A stretch of DNA of 64,000 bases, taken from NCBI GenBank assembly GCA_964550525.1, contig CAZJZJ010000001.1, positions 36,860 to 100,859 on the forward strand. Reading direction: 5' to 3'. Origin of the DNA: an uncultured Methanosarcinales archaeon. Lineage in GTDB: Archaea > Nanobdellota > Nanobdellia > Woesearchaeales > JANQNQ01. The position numbers were made by a program, and so were the translations under genes. This document shows, piece after piece, positions 27,347-40,317 of the stretch (position 1 is the first letter of the stretch; every line of letters starts with the position of its first letter). Under the pieces are notes generated by a model. That model was not told the origin of the DNA, did no database searches, and saw only the letters and a list, made by a program, of their open reading frames with translations.

Positions 27347-27499
27347 TGAATCACAACCAGTAGTTTTTAAGGATTTTTTGCTGAAAAAGACCAATTAGCG
27401 CCGATTCAACAAAAAACAACCAATTAAACCAGGTTAAACACATTATAAACCGGTAGTTGAACACCTATTTAAATGTTTTCTTTTTGTTGCTATTAAAGA

Positions 27500-27800
27500 G
27501 TAATTAAAGAGTCACACCTTCCAAACGAAATTTCCAGTTTATTACACGCCCTTTTGGTATCTGACACCTTTGTTTCCTTTGGAGATATCTTGTTTTGTTT
27601 TTTTGTTTTTTTGTTTTTTGTTTTCTATATAGAAAATAATAATAAAAGAAAAAAGTCGACGACAAAAAAATACAAAAAACAAAAGAAAAAACTTAAACAA
27701 CAACTAAAAACAAAGAAGAACCACAATTACACAGGAAACAAAAGGGTAGCAGACAAAAAACAAAAACTTTAAATACCTCCCTTTCGTTTGCAGATTGGAA
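27500..27800. other. oriC: Putative chromosomal replication origin (oriC): inverted ORB-like elements flanking a long T-run/A-run duplex-unwinding element, immediately upstream of orc1/cdc6
   Basis: Four ORB-like boxes are visible. At 27567-27584 the minus strand reads CTCCAAAGGAAACAAAGG. At 27734-27746 the plus strand reads GGAAACAAAAGGG. At 27776-27799 the minus strand reads TCCAATCTGCAAACGAAAGGGAGG. At 27517-27537 the plus strand reads TTCCAAACGAAATTTCCAG. A (T)n-rich stretch at 27590-27625 switches to an (A)n-rich stretch at 27640-27765. The orc1/cdc6, DP1, DP2 gene order follows downstream, as at the Pyrococcus oriC. Confidence 0.55.
27767..27776 (+). promoter_or_regulatory. TATA-box-like element (TTTAAATA) ~27 nt upstream of the orc1/cdc6 ATG, overlapping an ORB-like box
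   Basis: The sequence ctttaaatacc sits at the expected archaeal TATA distance from ATG 27802. Confidence 0.4.
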
Positions 27801-27801
27801 A

Positions 27802-30663: not shown

Positions 30664-33600
30664 ATGGCAGCAGAATCAAAAAAACTTAGCAATTATTTCT
30701 TATCCTTAGATGCAGAACTAAAAAAAGCATATAAAATTGCGTCTGCAGCAAGAAAAAAAGGCCTAGACCCTGAAGACAAAGTTGATGTACCTCTTGCTAG
30801 GAACATGGCACAAAGAGTTGAGGGTCTTGTTTCAGATATGATCCCACAACTAGTCAACACAGGTATGACTAAACGCATAGGCGAACTGGAAAAAGCGTAT
30901 AGCAAACTAGATTGGAGAGTTGCACTCAAAATTGCAGAAGAGGTAGCTAAAGGTAAATTCTGTAAATTTAAAGATAAAAAAGAAGCCATGGAAGCAGGTA
31001 TAAGAACCGGTTTCTCTTACATGACTCAAGGCATAGTGTCTGCACCGCTTGAAGGTTTTATTGGTCTTGAAATAAAAAAACGTAGAGATAGTAAGGGGCA
31101 GTACCTATCAGCTTGTTATGCTGGTCCAATAAGGGGTGCAGGTGGAACAGGTGCAGCATTTTCTATTGTACTAACTGATTATATCCGTTCAGTTATGGGC
31201 TATAGTAGGTATGATCCTTCTGAGCATGAAATAAAAAGGTTTGTTTCCGAGATCTACGACTATCATGAACGTGTAACAAACCTACAATACCTACCAACAC
31301 CAGAAGAAATAGAATTCCTAAGTCAAAAACTTCCTGTTGAAGTGAGTGGAGATCCGACAGAAGAGATTGAAGTTTCAAACTATAAGGATCTGCCTAGGGT
31401 TAAAACCAACCGGATTCGTGGGGGCATGTGTCTTGTAATGGCAGAAGGGCTTGCACAGAAAGCACCAAAATTATGGAAACGGTTGGTCAAATGGGGCAAA
31501 GAATATGGTTTAGATTGGTCATTTTTAGAGGCTTTCTTGATTTTACAAAAAAAGATTAAAGCAAAAAGTGATAAAACAGTGGAAGGAGAAACTAAGATAA
31601 CTCCGAACTATACTTTTATTAAAGACATTGTTGCGGGTAGGCCTGTATTAACACACCCTATGGCCCTTGGCGGGTTTAGGTTAAGGTATGGCCGTAATAG
31701 GTTATCTGGTTTTTCTGCTGCCTCAATCCATCCAAATACAATGAGGGTATTAAACAGCTATATTGCTACAGGCACACAATTAAAAATTGAAAGGCCAGGA
31801 AAAGGAGCAGCACTTACTCCATGCGATACAATAGAACCGCCTATAGTCAAATTAAATGATGGTAGCGTCATTAAATTAGATTCAGAACAAAAGCTTAGAG
31901 ACAACAAAAAAAAGATTAAAGAGATTTTATTCCTAGGAGATATCTTATTTAATTATGGAGATTTTTCAGAGAATGGGCAACGGCTTGCCCCTGCAGGGTA
32001 TTGTAAGGAATGGTGGGTTCAGGAGCTGGAAAAGTCAATAGTAACCACCTTTGGCAGCCTTGACCTAGAAAAAACATCAGGGTTTGCTGGGGTGGAAACA
32101 AAAGTTGTTCAAGACGTAATAGACCACCCATTAACCCACAACATTGGATCTAAGCAGGCTTTTGCGATCTCTACTAAGATGGGTTTGCCATTACACCCCT
32201 TACACACATACTACTGGAACTCTATACAAATAAAACAACTGGGTTCTTTATTAAACTGGTTTAGTAAAGCAAATCTGGTTGATGAGAAAGCCACCAATAT
32301 AAAACTGATCTTGCCCTTGGATAGAGAGCCTAAGCGCATACTTGAGCTTGTAGGAGTCCCGCATTTAGTGGTTTCTTCAGAATATATTGTTATTCTAGGG
32401 GAGGCCCTAATGTCTTTATTATTCAATCTCGGTTTTGAATCTGGGATTGCGGTTAAAGCTGCGATTGAAAAAGTTGCAAAACTAGATGGTAACCAGAAAA
32501 CCATTAATGCAATTAATCTGTTGGCAAATGTAAAGGTCAATGATCTATGTGGAACTTTTGTTGGGGCCAGAATGGGTAGACCTGAAAAAGCAAAAATGCG
32601 GAAACTTACAGGCAACCCGCAGGTTCTTTTCCCTGTTGGTGATCAAGGAGGTAGACTAAGGAGTTTTCAAGCAGCGATGGAAACAGGCAAGATCAAAGCA
32701 GATTTTCCGCTTTTTCGTTGTGATAAATGCAATAAGGATACAATATACAAAACATGTGAACATTGTGGGAAGAAAGCAAAACCAAAATTTTTCTGCCCAA
32801 TATGTGGGATAATTGACTCTGAAACCTGCCCCAAACATGGTAAAACAAAAACGCACGCCAGACAAGAGATAGATATTAAATATTATTTCAATTCTGCATT
32901 AGGTAAATTAGGTATGAATACCTATCCAGATTTAATAAAGGGTGTGAGGGGTACATCAAATAAGGACCATATCCCGGAAAACCTAACAAAAGGCATACTG
33001 CGTGCAAAACATAGTGTGTACGTGAACAAAGACGGTACAACAAGGTATGATATGTCAGAATTACCAATAACTCATTTCAAACCAAAAGAGATTGGTACAC
33101 CTTTAGATAGGTTAAAACAACTTGGTTATACTCACGATATTAATAATAAACCACTTATTGACGTAGAGCAGATTCTTGAGATCTTCCCTCAGGATGTAAT
33201 TCTTCCATCAGGTACACAGACCACAGATGAATCTGCAGATGTGGTTTTGTTGCGTGTTGCAGCGTTATAGATGAGTTACTTGTAAAGCATTATAATCTAC
33301 AGCCATATTATGGGATAAAAAATAAGTCTGATCTTGTTGGACAAGTTATACTTGGTCTAGCACCACATATCTCTGCAGCAACTGTTGGAAGGATAATTGG
33401 TTTTTCAGAAACACAAGGCTGTTTTGCACACCCCCTTTGGCATGCAGCCTTAAGAAGAGACTGTGATGGCGACGAGTGCAGTGTGATTTTGTTAATGGAT
33501 ACTTTACTTAATTTTTCTAGACAATACTTACCTGATAAACGTGGTGGGAGGACAATGGACAGCCCATTGGTACTAACTTCCAAGGTTGTGCCATCCGAAG

Positions 33601-34214
33601 TAGATGACCAGGTTCTTGGTTTAGATGTAACTTGGAAATATTCTTTGGATTTTTACCAAGCCACATTAAACAAAAAGTTTCCATGGGAGATAAAGGTCGA
33701 ACAACTTAATTCAAGAGTTGATACAGAAAAACAGTACGAGAAGATTGGTTTTACCCACGATACTAGCAATGTAAACTCAGGCATTAATTGTTCAGCATAT
33801 AAGACTTTACCAAGTATGAGAGAAAAACTCGAAGGGCAGATGGAGATAGCAACAAGAATTCGAGCCGTTGACGAAAAAGATGTAGCCAGGTTGGTTATAG
33901 AAAAACATTTTCTAAGAGATATTAAAGGCAACCTACGGAAGTTTTCTCAGCAGAAGTTTCGTTGTGTAAAATGTAATGAAAAGTATCGTAGACCACCACT
34001 TATTGGAAAATGTACTGCTTGTGGCGGTAAGATTATTTTTACTATCTCAAAAGGCTCTATTGAGAAGTACCTCGGACCAAGTATTGAGCTTGCTGAAAAA
34101 TTTGATCTGCCACCTTACCTTAAACAAACGTTAGAGCTTACTAAAACCAGGATAGAAGGGGTATTTGGTAAGGAAAAGGAAGTGCAAAGCGGTTTAGGTG
34201 CGTGGTGTGGTTAG
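30664..34214 (+). CDS. polC: DNA polymerase II (PolD) large subunit DP2, encoded in two frames and interrupted by an apparent -1 frameshift at ~33265-33270 (868-aa N-part in frame 1; C-part continues in the -1 frame)
   Basis: The N-part (30664..33270) has DP2-like sequence throughout and ends ...DVVLLRVAAL*. The -1 frame is open from 33231 and reads SVIDELLVKHYNLQPYYGIKNKSDLVGQVILGLAPHISAATVGRIIGFSETQGCFAHPLWHAALRRDCDGDECSVILLMD, which is the conserved DP2 catalytic segment with the Asp triad motif. A single-base slip at TTA|TAG restores an uninterrupted ~1183-aa DP2 of normal length. Confidence 0.85.
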
Positions 34215-36887: not shown

Positions 36888-38906
36888 TCAAATCCTTTGT
36901 ACAAACCCTGATTTTGGTTCGAATATATCACCGCTTCTTTTTAATTTTTCTATTGCATCTTCAACCTTGTCTTCTTCAATGCCTCTTTCACCTGCTTCCT
37001 TTAATATGTCGTCTATTGGGATGGTTTTACCTATCTTGTTTTCTAAATCGGCTATTATGTCTTTGACAACAATAATCTTACTACGTTGTGATGCAGGGAT
37101 CCCTGTAGATATCTTATCTATGTCAATCTTACCTGTCTCCATATCAGTTGCAACCTGGGCCAAACAAAAATTTAACAACTCAGTCGCCCTTTTAGCATCT
37201 TTCTTACCTACTTTCTTAGCTAACCTTAATTTAGCAGTACCCTCAGCTAACCTGATCAATGCTTCAAGTTGCCTTGGTGATATAGGTACAGATTTAATCC
37301 CACCCTCTTCACTACCTGAAGCCCTCATCTTTAGATAATAATTCTTAATCTCTTCAATTGCGCCATCTGTTAGTACAGGGAAACAAGTCTGCCTAGCATA
37401 AGCAACGTATTTCTTGAGTAAGGTTGTATCAATATCAGGATGTATGTCTTCTGGCTTTTGGTGTAATAATAGTATATGTTTAGCCATACGCTCATCTTTT
37501 TTCTCGTCAGGCAAATCTTTTACAGGAAATATTAAATCAAACCTATTAATCAAAGCTGGCGGCAGGTTTATTTGTTTAGCAATTATGTCGTATGGGTCAA
37601 ACCTGCCAAACTTAGGGTTAGCAGCAGCCAGTACAGTAGTCTCACATCTTAATGTTGCTTGAATATTTGCTTTACTTATGCTAACTGTCTGTTGTTCAAG
37701 TGCTTCATGCATTGCAGCTCTATCTTCTGGGGTCATCTTATCCATCTCATCAATACATACTAGCCCCCTGTTTGCAAGAACTAATGCACCTGCTTCCAGA
37801 GCCCATCCTTTCAAAAACTCGTCTTTAACAACTGCAGCAGTCAAACCTGCGCCACTTACACCTTTACCACTAACATACCTTGCTTTTGGTGCAACCGTTG
37901 ATGCCCTTTTCAACAACTGAGATTTACCTGCACCAGGATCTCCTATTAATAGAACATGCATATCCCCCCTAGTAATCATGCCATCTGGACGTTCCTTTTT
38001 CACACCACCAACTAACTGAAGCAACAATGCTTCTTTTACTTTACCATAACCAAATATAGATGGCGCAACAGATTTAATAAGCTTAGAATATACCTTTGGG
38101 TCGTTTGATAATTTTCTTATTTGTTCTACCTCTTTTTCATTAATCTCCAATTCTAGATAATCTTCTTGCATGGTCTCAACATGGTTTGCTTCAACTAATA
38201 GGTCAAACCTAGTAGACTGAACTCCGCTGTGAAGAGTGATAGGCACTTCTTTGATTATTCCACTTACCTGGATTCTGCTTCCCGGATTGGTTTTTTTATC
38301 AGAAATAGGGCTGACTAGGTCCTCTTTAAGAAATATGTTCATTCTTTTAGGCTGTTCACCGCCTTCAAGATCCTCTGGTGATTCTTCAAGCACTATACCT
38401 TGTACATCTATTAGCTCTTTTCCTATCAATCTAAATTTGCCTTTTCTACCGCAACCACATGTAGCTGGTTCTTTAAACTTTTTATCTACTTGCAAAACAG
38501 AGATAATATTTCCGCAACTTGGGCATTCAAATCTTGCAGATGTAACTTGAGGGCGTACATCAGATTTTTGTCTAACTACTCCCTCTAAAACAAGAAATTT
38601 GTTGATATGTTCACTTCTAATATTCCTAACCATTATCTTTTGTGATTCTGGTAGGTTTGAAACCCTAATCTTAACATCTTTAGCAGCTTTAGGCAGGTCA
38701 AATTGTTCAATTGCTAGTTCTGCAGCTTTGATTAGATCCTCTGGTTGGTCTAGCATTAGATCAGCTAGTTTTGGGTTGAACTTTGATAACTCTGTAAAAT
38801 CTATAACTAGGTAATAAAGAGATTTTCTGAGATTCTTTTGTAGAATAGCTAAATAATTGGTTTCTATAAATTCTTGGAATAGTTTTATTTGTTCGGCTGT
38901 ATTCAT
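36888..38906 (-). CDS. mcm: MCM replicative helicase
   Basis: It has an N-terminal Zn-finger region (CPSCGN...CGCG), Walker A LLIGDPGAGKSQLL, Walker B CIDEMDKM, an arginine finger and a C-terminal wH. The probable start is MNTAEQ at 38906, with a TATA-like tatttaaact ~25 nt upstream. The track ORF extends to 38984 through ORB-like repeats. Confidence 0.9.
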   Translation of the reverse strand: MNTAEQIKLFQEFIETNYLAILQKNLRKSLYYLVIDFTELSKFNPKLADLMLDQPEDLIKAAELAIEQFDLPKAAKDVKIRVSNLPESQKIMVRNIRSEHINKFLVLEGVVRQKSDVRPQVTSARFECPSCGNIISVLQVDKKFKEPATCGCGRKGKFRLIGKELIDVQGIVLEESPEDLEGGEQPKRMNIFLKEDLVSPISDKKTNPGSRIQVSGIIKEVPITLHSGVQSTRFDLLVEANHVETMQEDYLELEINEKEVEQIRKLSNDPKVYSKLIKSVAPSIFGYGKVKEALLLQLVGGVKKERPDGMITRGDMHVLLIGDPGAGKSQLLKRASTVAPKARYVSGKGVSGAGLTAAVVKDEFLKGWALEAGALVLANRGLVCIDEMDKMTPEDRAAMHEALEQQTVSISKANIQATLRCETTVLAAANPKFGRFDPYDIIAKQINLPPALINRFDLIFPVKDLPDEKKDERMAKHILLLHQKPEDIHPDIDTTLLKKYVAYARQTCFPVLTDGAIEEIKNYYLKMRASGSEEGGIKSVPISPRQLEALIRLAEGTAKLRLAKKVGKKDAKRATELLNFCLAQVATDMETGKIDIDKISTGIPASQRSKIIVVKDIIADLENKIGKTIPIDDILKEAGERGIEEDKVEDAIEKLKRSGDIFEPKSGFVQRI

Positions 38907-38949
38907 ATTATTAACACTTCTTTTATAGTTTAAATACCTCACGCGTACA

Positions 38950-39052
38950 CATGTCCAGTGTCCAGTGGCTCCCCCAAACGCCAAAAAACAGATAGCTCAA
39001 GCTATAATAACGCAGTTTTCCACTGGACACCCTGCTTTGTCCAGTGGCTCTA
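38950..39052. repeat. Cluster of ORB-like TCCAGTGG dyad elements between TBP (stop 39058) and the mcm promoter
   Basis: 38954-38975 reads TCCAGTGTCCAGTGGCTCCCCC. At 39015-39030 the minus strand reads GTGTCCAGTGGAAAAC, which matches the ORB core TCCAGTGGAAAC. 39040-39050 reads GTCCAGTGGCTC. All are read directly from the sequence. Confidence 0.5.
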
Positions 39053-39057
39053 GAATT

Positions 39058-39600
39058 TTACGTTTTGATCTTCTTTAGGTTTTTAATTAGCTTGTCTAGT
39101 GCTTCTTTCACAGCAGATTCGCTTTTTGTACCTGTACAAACTACTTTTCCGTTACTGAATAAAAGGAAAGTTGCCCTAGCTTCTGTAAGCTTATACACTA
39201 AACCTGGGAACTGTTCTGGTTCGTACTCTGTATTGTGTAGCTTCATTGCAAGGATATTCAGGTTAAGATCCATACCAACACTACCAGAAGCTACAATGTT
39301 CTGTATGTTTACTTTTGGTTGTATCTTAATGTTGATTCCTATCTTTTTTAGACTCTTTATAATCTTCTTGATAGACTCGTGTACCTTGTCTATGGTCCTT
39401 GCACCAGTGCATACAACCTTTCCTGAACTAAATATTAAAGCAGATGTTTTAGGCTCTTTAATCCTAATAACAAGCCCAGGGAATTGTTCTGGGTTGTATT
39501 CAGTGTTACTGAGCGTTGCTGCCATCTTTTCAAGAGGTATAGCATGCTCTAAATCAGTTGAAACCACGATATTTACTACTTTTATGTTTTTTTCAGCCAT
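39058..39600 (-). CDS. tbp: TATA-box binding protein
   Basis: Two direct TBP repeats are present (NIVVSTDL...FPGLVIRIKEPKTSALIFSSGKVVCTGA and NIVASGSV...FPGLVYKLTEARATFLLFSNGKVVCTGT), in 180 aa. Confidence 0.9.
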   Translation of the reverse strand: MAEKNIKVVNIVVSTDLEHAIPLEKMAATLSNTEYNPEQFPGLVIRIKEPKTSALIFSSGKVVCTGARTIDKVHESIKKIIKSLKKIGINIKIQPKVNIQNIVASGSVGMDLNLNILAMKLHNTEYEPEQFPGLVYKLTEARATFLLFSNGKVVCTGTKSESAVKEALDKLIKNLKKIKT

Positions 39601-39951
39601 AATATCGCCCCCATAAGCGTTTTATTTATAAGGGTTTAAAAAGCAAGCTTATTTATAAATACTTTGGTTTTTAAATGAAACCATTCTAAACTAAATGATG
39701 CATTTGGTATGCCCCTTTGATTTCATTTGTAATATTTCTGGTATTAAGCCTTAAAATAGCTGTTTTTGCCTGTTTCAGAAAGTGTTCAAGATGTAACGCC
39801 CCTGGTTTTCCATTGGAAAAACAAGCACCTCAGGCCCTTAAGCAATAAGTTACAAAAATGGTTGCTGCAAAATACATATTCCAAAACAATGGTATGCCTA
39901 TATAATATAACCACAAAATTTAAATATTCTACCTTAACTATCGTTAAGTTC

Positions 39952-40317
39952 ATGAAATTAATGCCACAAGAGATTGAGGTTTGGTATATCCTGCCTGCTA
40001 TTAGGAAAGAGATTGCCATTGAAATGAAAAAGCTTGGCTTGAAACAGAATGAAATAGCTCAAAAGCTTGGTCTGACAGAAGCTGCAGTTAGCCAATACCT
40101 TAAAGGTAAACGCGGTAATGATGTTGATCTGGATAAAGAGATCAAAACCAGGATAAAAGAGATCACAAAAAAACTGATTAAAGACCAGACCTGTTTAATT
40201 AAAGAAATAAACGAGTTATGCAAAAGGGCAAAAAAATGTTTGTTGTTGTGTAAAGTACACAGGAAGCATGATCATGGGCTTTCAAAGGACTGTAGCGCTT
40301 GTTTAGAACAATACTAG
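39952..40317 (+). CDS. Small HTH (XRE-like) transcriptional regulator with a C-terminal Cys/His-rich putative metal or Fe-S binding tail
   Basis: The likely start is MKLMPQE at 39952, with a TATA-like tttaaata at 39919-39926. The HTH reads NEIAQKLGLTEAAVSQYLKGKRG. The tail reads QTC..ELC..KKC..LLC..HRKHDH..DCSAC. The 3' end overlaps the iscS start. Confidence 0.5.
   Translation: MKLMPQEIEVWYILPAIRKEIAIEMKKLGLKQNEIAQKLGLTEAAVSQYLKGKRGNDVDLDKEIKTRIKEITKKLIKDQTCLIKEINELCKRAKKCLLLCKVHRKHDHGLSKDCSACLEQY

Follow-up and report, generated by a model that had tools for sequence, protein, structure and literature searches.

A cluster of short boxes lies at positions 38950-39052 of a 64-kb stretch of DNA, hereafter the window, from a Woesearchaeota-type (DPANN) archaeon of about 36% G+C, between the gene for the TATA-binding protein (tbp) and that for the replicative helicase (mcm). 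We conclude that this cluster is probably a regulator-binding array, composed of four CACTGGACA boxes, that belongs to a special class of leaderless promoters; its binding by a protein is the part of this reading that we infer. What is observed is a composite element with a set orientation and a fixed position relative to TATA, conservation of that element under selection, its use at many unlinked genes and its frequent occurrence in arrays. As it precedes mcm together with DNA-transaction and selfish genes in Woesearchaeales, the module is best read as defining a distinct promoter class. A promoter-proximal regulatory motif that defines a regulon is ordinary in kind; the motif and the module themselves are undescribed in the literature searched, where we found no description of the motif, of the module, or of origin recognition boxes (ORBs) or promoter motifs in Woesearchaeota. 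A sequence-only reading of the window had instead taken the cluster for a possible second set of ORBs, the sites bound by Orc1/Cdc6, which would mark either a secondary origin or Orc1-dependent regulation of mcm.

The spacer in question is 151 nt long with 42% GC and separates two minus-strand genes, tbp (39058-39600; 180 aa, with Pfam TBP in two stretches) and its downstream neighbour mcm (36888-38906; 672 aa, with Pfam MCM_N, MCM_OB, MCM, MCM_lid and MCM_WH_arc). We write the repeated unit as it reads on the gene strand, where it is the 9-mer CACTGGACA (reverse complement TGTCCAGTG). All four copies in the window fall within 95 nt (38952-39046), compared to 0.33 copies expected by chance, and none of 100 shuffled windows reached four. 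Copies with one mismatch elsewhere in the window occurred at chance level and in coding sequence. The exact 9-mer is confined to this spacer, though cdc6, PolD, RFC, FEN1, Hjc and TFE are also encoded in the window. The repeated TCCAGTGG-like boxes reported between tbp and mcm by the sequence-only reading are therefore real, and all of the strings that it quoted are present (TCCAGTGTCCAGTGGCTCCCCC at 38954-38975, plus strand; GTGTCCAGTGGAAAAC at 39015-39030, minus strand; GTCCAGTGGCTC at 39039-39050, plus strand). Its description of them as dyads, one of them perfect, did not hold. The units are not dyads, since the asymmetric CACTGGACA alone is conserved in relatives, and the supposedly perfect TCCAGTGGAAAAC carries one A more than the consensus TCCAGTGGAAAC, loose matches to which were not enriched in the window (8 found, 4.9 expected).

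The four boxes are arranged as follows, with offsets counted on the gene strand from the copy nearest the TATA box. The proximal box (offset 0; 38952-38960, minus strand) is an exact match and forms the first element of the module described below. A second exact match overlaps it in tandem (offset -7; 38959-38967, minus strand) to give CACTGGACACTGGACAT, and the string TCCAGTGTCCAGTGG in the sequence-only reading is this same tandem. Further upstream are an inverted box, copy B (offset -69; 39021-39029, plus strand), which with its flanks reads GTGTCCAGTGGAAAAC on the minus strand, and a distal direct box (offset -86; 39038-39046, minus strand) within the 13-nt repeat GAGCCACTGGACA. A repeat search returned the boxes at offsets -7 and -86 as a 13-nt direct repeat, TGTCCAGTGGCTC, at 38959-38971 and 39038-39050, along with inverted arms of 10-11 nt, and exact GTCCAGTGG occurs three times in the window, all three within 38960-39047. 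The whole spacer is identical in seven metagenome contigs of the same strain, which share the TBP.

Copy B and the distal box, copy A, form a perfect 10-bp stem with an 8-nt loop (39020-39047), located 11 nt past the tbp stop codon and followed about 30 nt downstream by a T6 run, an arrangement that might be an RNA hairpin terminating or stabilising the tbp transcript. We consider such a role for the boxes very unlikely: the fold of the spacer is ordinary (z = -0.78; 39 of 200 shuffled sequences fold as well), the window contains no Rfam match at the gathering threshold and no ARAGORN tRNA match, relatives have one box and no hairpin, and extra boxes, where they occur, are usually direct and not inverted. 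The T6 run itself (38983-38988, on the gene strand), which follows a small palindrome, ATAGCTTGAGCTAT (38992-39005), between boxes B and C1, is probably the tbp terminator. In relatives, too, T-runs are found between the tbp stop codon and the box.

On the gene strand the spacer ends with CACTGGACAT-GTGTA-CGCGT-GAGG-TATTTAAA, a module of 32 nt, followed by 22 nt and the mcm start codon (38904-38906, minus strand). The TATA box TATTTAAA occupies 38929-38936 and is preceded by GAGG at 38937-38940; the CGCGT element (38941-38945, minus strand) lies between the box and the transcription factor B recognition element (BRE)/TATA, forms part of the module logo described below, and is kept in most relatives' mcm promoters, which had been searched for the box only and not for CGCGT. 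The mcm open reading frame (ORF) could begin at 38906 or, in the long reading, at 38984 (698 aa). Of the 120 best MCM homologues, most have lengths of 668-677 aa, independent metagenome gene callers give a 672-aa mcm from the same ATG, and the MCM_N domain starts at residue 35 of the 698-aa reading. Because these observations and the TATA spacing agree, the sequence-only reading was right in placing the start at 38906 and a TATA-like element here, and in regarding the N-terminal extension as non-coding. A distance of 22 nt from TATA to start implies a leaderless mcm mRNA. The BRE region, CGCGTGAG, is G+C-rich, in contrast to the A-rich BRE at cdc6 and tbp in the same genomes. One further resemblance, that of ACGCGT in the spacer (38941-38946, minus strand) to the yeast MluI cell-cycle box of G1/S genes including MCM genes, was dismissed as a coincidence; the element conserved here is CGCGT/CGCGC.

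The gene order around the spacer is shared across the order, running tbp, mcm, an OB-fold gene and then, some 8-10 kb further, cdc6, with the tbp-mcm pair present in most relatives. Sequence from 80 relatives, 1.29 Mb in all, contains 38 copies of CACTGGACA. At 29 loci, among about 62 related genomes, the copy shares the strand of mcm and precedes its ATG by 50-210 nt, and at most of these the box ends 10-15 nt (mostly 13) before TATA and is followed by a conserved CGCGT or CGCGC. Other matches fell in coding sequence, including the ALDKL codons of tbp, and in a second complete module in one relative, L066 (loci are cited here by such L numbers). Intergenic sequence flanking the box is not conserved among relatives. 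Most of them have a single box, fixed relative to TATA; the -7 overlap recurs in L060, and L029 and L051 have a CACTGGTCACTGGACA variant of it. On a neighbour-joining tree of MCM the box appears in two deep clades and has been lost repeatedly, including in the nearest relatives of the window, and from this distribution we take the box to be old and under selection. At L066 (9795-10001) an insertion of unrelated sequence separates the module from mcm, which begins 206 nt downstream. The second, non-identical module of L066 (18271-18406) drives a TnpB-like gene (MKSVATIKLKIP...) beside PolD, and a homologue of this gene in L155 has OrfB_IS605 and Cas12f1-like TNB domains.

The module extends well beyond mcm. 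Across loci it spans 30-32 nt, as CACTGGACAT, 3-5 nt, CGCGT, 3-5 nt and TATTTAAA, and a metagenome scan with the pattern CACTGGACAW-N{3,5}-CGCGT-N{3,5}-TWTWTAWA returned at least 120 loci, with chance matches estimated at fewer than about 10. The counts that follow are among the matches listed. Module loci have 27-44% G+C, and 51 of 121 share proteins with Woesearchaeales reference loci; among viral contigs, the module was carried by one in 2.9 million. The 105 downstream ORFs belong to about 40 unrelated families. MCM was confirmed downstream of five modules, with one or two more fragments too short to score. Other downstream families confirmed by Pfam were LAGLIDADG (about 30 of the 105 ORFs), RadC, N6/N4 DNA methylases, Bro-N, KilA-N, TnpB (three), PIN toxins, tyrosine integrases, PD-(D/E)XK/Cas4-like nucleases, Y-family polymerase, Mrr and an RNase_H-fold exonuclease. 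Nearly all of these confirmed genes are selfish or work on DNA. From TATA to start, the distance in the module loci is most often 22 nt, exactly that at the mcm of the window, and leaderless transcripts are therefore indicated for the class. A single-linkage cluster that joined MCM with LAGLIDADG proteins depended on a lone weak link of 33 aa and was discarded as not meaningful.

Conservation in the module logo is restricted to the 30 nt of the module, and information content is at background directly outside it. Because of these flanks the module is not a miniature inverted-repeat transposable element, and with no conserved flank or terminal repeat a dispersed repeat was likewise rejected. 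The sequence-only reading had named wide dispersal of the motif as an observation that would speak against ORBs. This is in part what we find, as the motif recurs within a promoter module before dozens of unrelated genes.

In the 29 mcm promoters and the 120 metagenome modules listed, the box is always on the gene strand, 10-15 nt before TATA. Extra upstream boxes are present in 62 of the 120 modules and occupy preferred offsets: -7 (again CACTGGACACTGGACAT) in 26, -20/-21 in 15, -70 to -74 in 10, -15/-16 in seven, and -86 in three (L125, L150, L170). Inverted extra boxes are rare (6 of 120). The cluster in the window, with direct boxes at 0, -7 and -86 and the inverted copy at -69, is a stereotyped array of this kind, two of its boxes standing at the preferred offsets -7 and -86.

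Past the module we noted three recurrent 5' leader types, some of which stand before unrelated ORFs: AATCATTTACATAGTTTCAAC...GGTGATTTAAAATG (L107, L108, L123, L139, L183), TTGAAATAAAAnGCGAAnAGCAAAGAGGTG (L093, L096, L112, L182, L194, L210) and a long hairpin, GAGAACACGCAAAACTGCC...GCAGTTTTGC...GTTCTC (L098, L109, L135, L184, L197, L209). ARAGORN (40 loci) and Rfam gave no match directly downstream of the module, and none of the three leader types matched Rfam. Sequences that looked tRNA-like by eye (L115, L132, L164, L170, L201) were called by neither program. A family of small proteins of about 95-105 aa (…EKKFxxGxISATIWxN…SFxRxYKDKxGxWxxT…) without a Pfam match is encoded in L160, L182, L194 and L210, all four module-driven and with the same leader in front; the family looks by eye like single-stranded-DNA binders of the PC4/YdbC type.

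The share of LAGLIDADG ORFs, together with the three TnpB genes, raises the question of whether the boxes are primarily targets or hitch-hikers of selfish elements (LAGLIDADG homing endonucleases, TnpB), with the mcm box there by chance. An asymmetric site of about 22 bp with two half-sites does resemble a LAGLIDADG target. We nevertheless see only a slim chance that this explains the boxes, given that an orthologous box is kept at mcm in deep Woesearchaeales lineages at a fixed distance from TATA, that flanks and terminal repeats are not conserved, that spacers varying between 3 and 5 nt are unlike a rigid endonuclease site, and that the module also serves numerous cellular genes (RadC, Y-family polymerase, nucleases).

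In the regulator-binding reading, which we prefer, the module would drive a leaderless transcript that starts about 22 nt past TATA, at the ATG at 38906. A sequence-specific DNA-binding regulator would occupy the box at about -52 to -43 from the start site, just upstream of the G+C-rich BRE. This candidate regulator may fill the extra boxes cooperatively at their fixed offsets, and from the box it would control the recruitment of TFB and TBP. Within this reading we lean slightly towards activation at a weak BRE, as opposed to repression by masking of the BRE. Box geometry of this type is typical of archaeal activators that aid TFB and TBP recruitment, such as Ptr2 (Methanocaldococcus) and TFB-RF1 (Pyrococcus), whose upstream activator sites are palindromic or dimer-type and lineage-specific. 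Like those sites, the box stands directly upstream of the BRE/TATA, accompanies a non-consensus BRE and has a geometry compatible with TFB/TBP recruitment; it differs from them in its unit, an asymmetric 9-10-mer often found in direct arrays with fixed offsets.

Alternatively, the whole module could be an extended core promoter read directly by a variant of a general factor; a TFB paralogue in the role of an alternative sigma factor would be one such variant. In favour of this, box, CGCGT and TATA form a single conserved unit with constrained spacing, the BRE is unlike the A-rich BRE of cdc6 and tbp in the same genomes, and both orientation and the distance to the transcription start site are strict. 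What makes this doubtful is the location of the boxes: the box stands 13 nt upstream of TATA, which in TFB-TBP-DNA structures is beyond the reach of the TFB helix-turn-helix (HTH) on the BRE, and a single preinitiation complex would hardly account for the further boxes at -21, -72 and -86.

Several observations weigh against the regulator-binding reading. The closest relatives of the window by MCM identity (71%: L008, L009, L088-L091) are without it, which indicates that the box is dispensable. No transcription-factor gene in 20-kb neighbourhoods correlates with box presence, and a comparison of box-positive with box-negative loci across 24 ORFs of the window gave phylogenetic signal only; the HTH gene that adjoins tbp is not conserved there in relatives. 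As to the four-box architecture in close relatives, the seven TBP-sharing contigs are identical and the next-closest MCMs are boxless. Tandem boxes 7 nt apart are awkward for simultaneous occupation by a typical DNA-binding domain, and geometry is the sole basis for choosing between activator and repressor. Finally, the scan pattern forced CGCGT and TATA, which makes the census of gene classes a biased sample of the matches listed, and many of the roughly 30 LAGLIDADG ORFs among the 105 have a common conserved leader, so part of the spread of the module may reflect one mobile gene copied with its promoter.

The proposal that the boxes are ORBs was examined with a model built for this clade. 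Sites were sought in the sequence upstream of cdc6 in the window and in 32 MCM-fetched relatives, and iterative refinement yielded 85 of them, with the consensus TTCCAtAgGAAAT-N3-GGgGTG. Scored with the corresponding position weight matrix (PWM), true clade ORBs reach 16-32 bits and the cdc6-proximal ORBs of the window 27.2, 19.9 and 16.1 bits, whereas the maximum in the tbp-mcm spacer is 9.9 bits (full PWM, copy B; 9.6 bits for the copy B core), which is lower than 15 unrelated core matches in the window. Given these far lower scores, it is wrong to claim a closer match to the ORB consensus for the cluster than for the cdc6-proximal boxes. The 29 orthologous boxes average -3.2 bits with the core and -7.8 bits with the full PWM, at about the 99th percentile of background.

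The comparison by position points the same way. The invariant C of GGACA aligns with ORB position 11, which is always A and is C in 0 of 85 ORBs; ORB positions 6-8 are variable, whereas the same positions in the box are invariant (CTG); and the TT/TC left arm (TTCC) of the ORB is not conserved in the boxes of 29 species. The mini-ORB core of Pyrococcus is TTCC-N-GAA (PMC1904270), and our own model gives TCCA-N3-GAAA for the Woesearchaeal clade. Copies A, C1 and C2 fail this core, reading (G)CCACTGGACA or TGTCCAGTGGCTC with GACA or GCTC instead of GAAA. Copy B, which is the sole copy to resemble the mini-ORB core, satisfies it with one mismatch and is without the G-string. The GGGGT string expected 3-4 nt past the core is absent from the boxes, whose flanks read CTCCCCC, AAGCAGGG and CTGCGTT. 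Judged by this model, the boxes at 38950-39052 are not origin recognition boxes.

A remaining form of the proposal holds that the boxes are mini-ORBs through which the single Orc1/Cdc6 regulates mcm. Several likenesses speak for it. Copy B, GTCCAGTGGAAAA, is one mismatch from the Pyrococcus core TTCC...GAA (PMC1904270) and matches the TCCAGTGGAA core. ORB and module are both short asymmetric elements near replication genes, laid out as CCA-N3-GA (in the module CCA-N3-GA.AT) and then, after about 3 nt, a G-containing element. A nested clade of six relatives (L032, L040, L050, L054, L056, L063) has a canonical ORB of 18.6-24.6 bits in the same place and orientation, about 80 nt before mcm, and in this order the promoters of cdc6 and tbp make use of predicted Orc1 sites. 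Orc1-family proteins, moreover, are able to regulate transcription (PMC6061795). Even so, the negative mean scores, the invariant C and CTG and the unconserved left arm separate the boxes from ORBs, which are also not TATA-fixed before dozens of non-replication genes as the boxes are. The same genomes that have the box retain canonical ORBs at cdc6 and tbp, and the cdc6 origin is without the box. Because Orc1/Cdc6 is reported to be single-copy in Nanobdellota (bioRxiv 10.64898/2026.05.13.725050), a specialised paralogue like Sulfolobus Orc1-2 is also argued against. We therefore regard Orc1 binding to the boxes as improbable; of the original suggestion, a cis-regulatory feature of the mcm promoter stands, and its assignment to Orc1 does not agree with the ORB definition of the clade.

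A secondary origin at the cluster is scarcely credible. Repeats in both orientations beside the replicative helicase gene could be read in that way, and some archaea do have multiple origins. There is however no A/T-rich DNA unwinding element in the spacer, where A+T does not exceed 65% per 60 nt compared to 88% at the cdc6 origin, and it is this lack that leaves no case for a second origin. In addition, the boxes fail the ORB comparison, most relatives have a single TATA-fixed box, and the module also stands before dozens of unrelated genes. Cumulative GC skew over the 64 kb tracks gene orientation, with no specific inflection at 39 kb.

A textbook origin is located instead at 27395-27801, between a TrmB-like gene and cdc6. 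It has ORBs at 27563-27584 (minus), 27727-27748 (plus) and 27772-27793 (minus), identified with the clade PWM, and a palindrome at 27621-27636; inverted ORBs surround a 136-nt stretch of 20% GC that contains TTTTCTATATAGAAAA, an element conserved in relatives. In each cdc6 region an inverted distal ORB and a proximal ORB enclose a very A/T-rich stretch, at whose centre stands TTTTCTATATAGAAAA, and usually a third ORB, also inverted, separates the cdc6 TATA box from the start codon. The geometry of this third ORB, found in the window and in most relatives, appears suited to autorepression of cdc6.

Better ORB matches than those of the spacer are also found upstream of tbp, in tbp/mcm orientation and 86 nt apart, at 39797-39818 (minus; 16.0 bits) and 39711-39732 (minus; 11.4 bits). 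They are weaker than their counterparts in relatives, of which 43 of 62 have one or two ORBs of 13-30 bits, 110-300 nt upstream of tbp and in the same orientation, often 84-86 nt apart (L008-L076); a series of TATA-like boxes begins about 30 nt further on. The six relatives with the canonical ORB upstream of mcm lack one at tbp. Orc1-linked control of the tbp-mcm pair across the order is thus plausible from the predicted sites, but these are not the 38950-39052 boxes. Thermococcales offer a precedent for Orc1 sites that are conserved away from the origin proper and beside replication genes: there, a second ORB cluster inside dp1, by oriC, consists of true ORBs bound by Cdc6 in chromatin immunoprecipitation (PMC1904270). 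The precedent applies to the ORBs upstream of tbp, since the tbp-mcm boxes are not ORBs. In the tbp promoter (39620-39700, minus strand) and in the same region of relatives there are three to four consecutive TATA-like boxes, CATTTAAAAA, GTATTTATAAATA, CTTTTTAAAC and CTTATAAATA, and AAAAGTATTTAAATA is near-invariant across relatives. These consecutive boxes may be TBP decoy or autoregulatory sites.

As to what the regulator-binding module might serve, we hold as a tentative possibility that a second promoter class of Woesearchaeales (DPANN) couples mcm to a regulon of repair, restriction and mobile-element genes, in an SOS-like or mobilome-control circuit. The factor for such a circuit could be the single Orc1/Cdc6 in a non-ORB mode, a WhiA-like regulator derived from LAGLIDADG proteins, or a variant of TFB that acts in a sigma-like way. 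As a functional analogy only, the bacterial SOS box of the LexA regulon is likewise an operator common to translesion polymerase, recombination/nuclease, toxin-antitoxin and mobile-element genes; it belongs to another domain and transcription machinery, and the module box is not palindromic, does not overlap TATA or the start, and implicates no LexA homologue. A closer archaeal comparison is the DNA-damage-response element of Sulfolobus, 5'-ANTTTC-3' at -23 to -55 from the ATG, which is regulated by Orc1-2, a second Orc1 paralogue (PMC6061795). It too is a short promoter-proximal motif of DNA-repair and DNA-transfer genes that defines an archaeal regulon. It differs from the module in sequence and position, and its binder is known, whereas the regulon of the module is predicted from sequence and Nanobdellota are reported to have one Orc1.

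Almost nothing is known of gene regulation in uncultivated DPANN archaea. The module adds a sharply defined cis-element with fixed geometry, a predicted transcription start and a candidate regulon that links mcm with DNA repair and selfish DNA. The analysis also corrects a tempting misannotation, as ORB-like boxes beside mcm are not origin sites here, and supplies a clade-specific ORB model whose better matches fall at the cdc6 origin, across the promoter of cdc6 and before tbp. Were the regulator found, replication and repair control in reduced-genome archaea would be opened to study, and the module could provide a portable promoter for these lineages.

Elsewhere in the window, a gene divergent from tbp (39952-40317, plus strand) encodes a 121-aa HTH_3 protein with a Cys/His-rich C-terminus; the 183-aa HTH_3 ORF listed from 39766 overlaps the ORB region upstream of tbp and is probably too long. 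The large subunit of PolD (DP2) is split between 30664-33270 and 33483-34214 (both plus strand); the two ORFs are 212 nt apart, and about 85 residues of the catalytic domain profile are missing at this gap, whereas DP2 in L066 is one ORF of 1196 aa. The split could be a frameshift, a pseudogene, an assembly error or real. The gene order cdc6, DP1, DP2 is the same as in Thermococcales.

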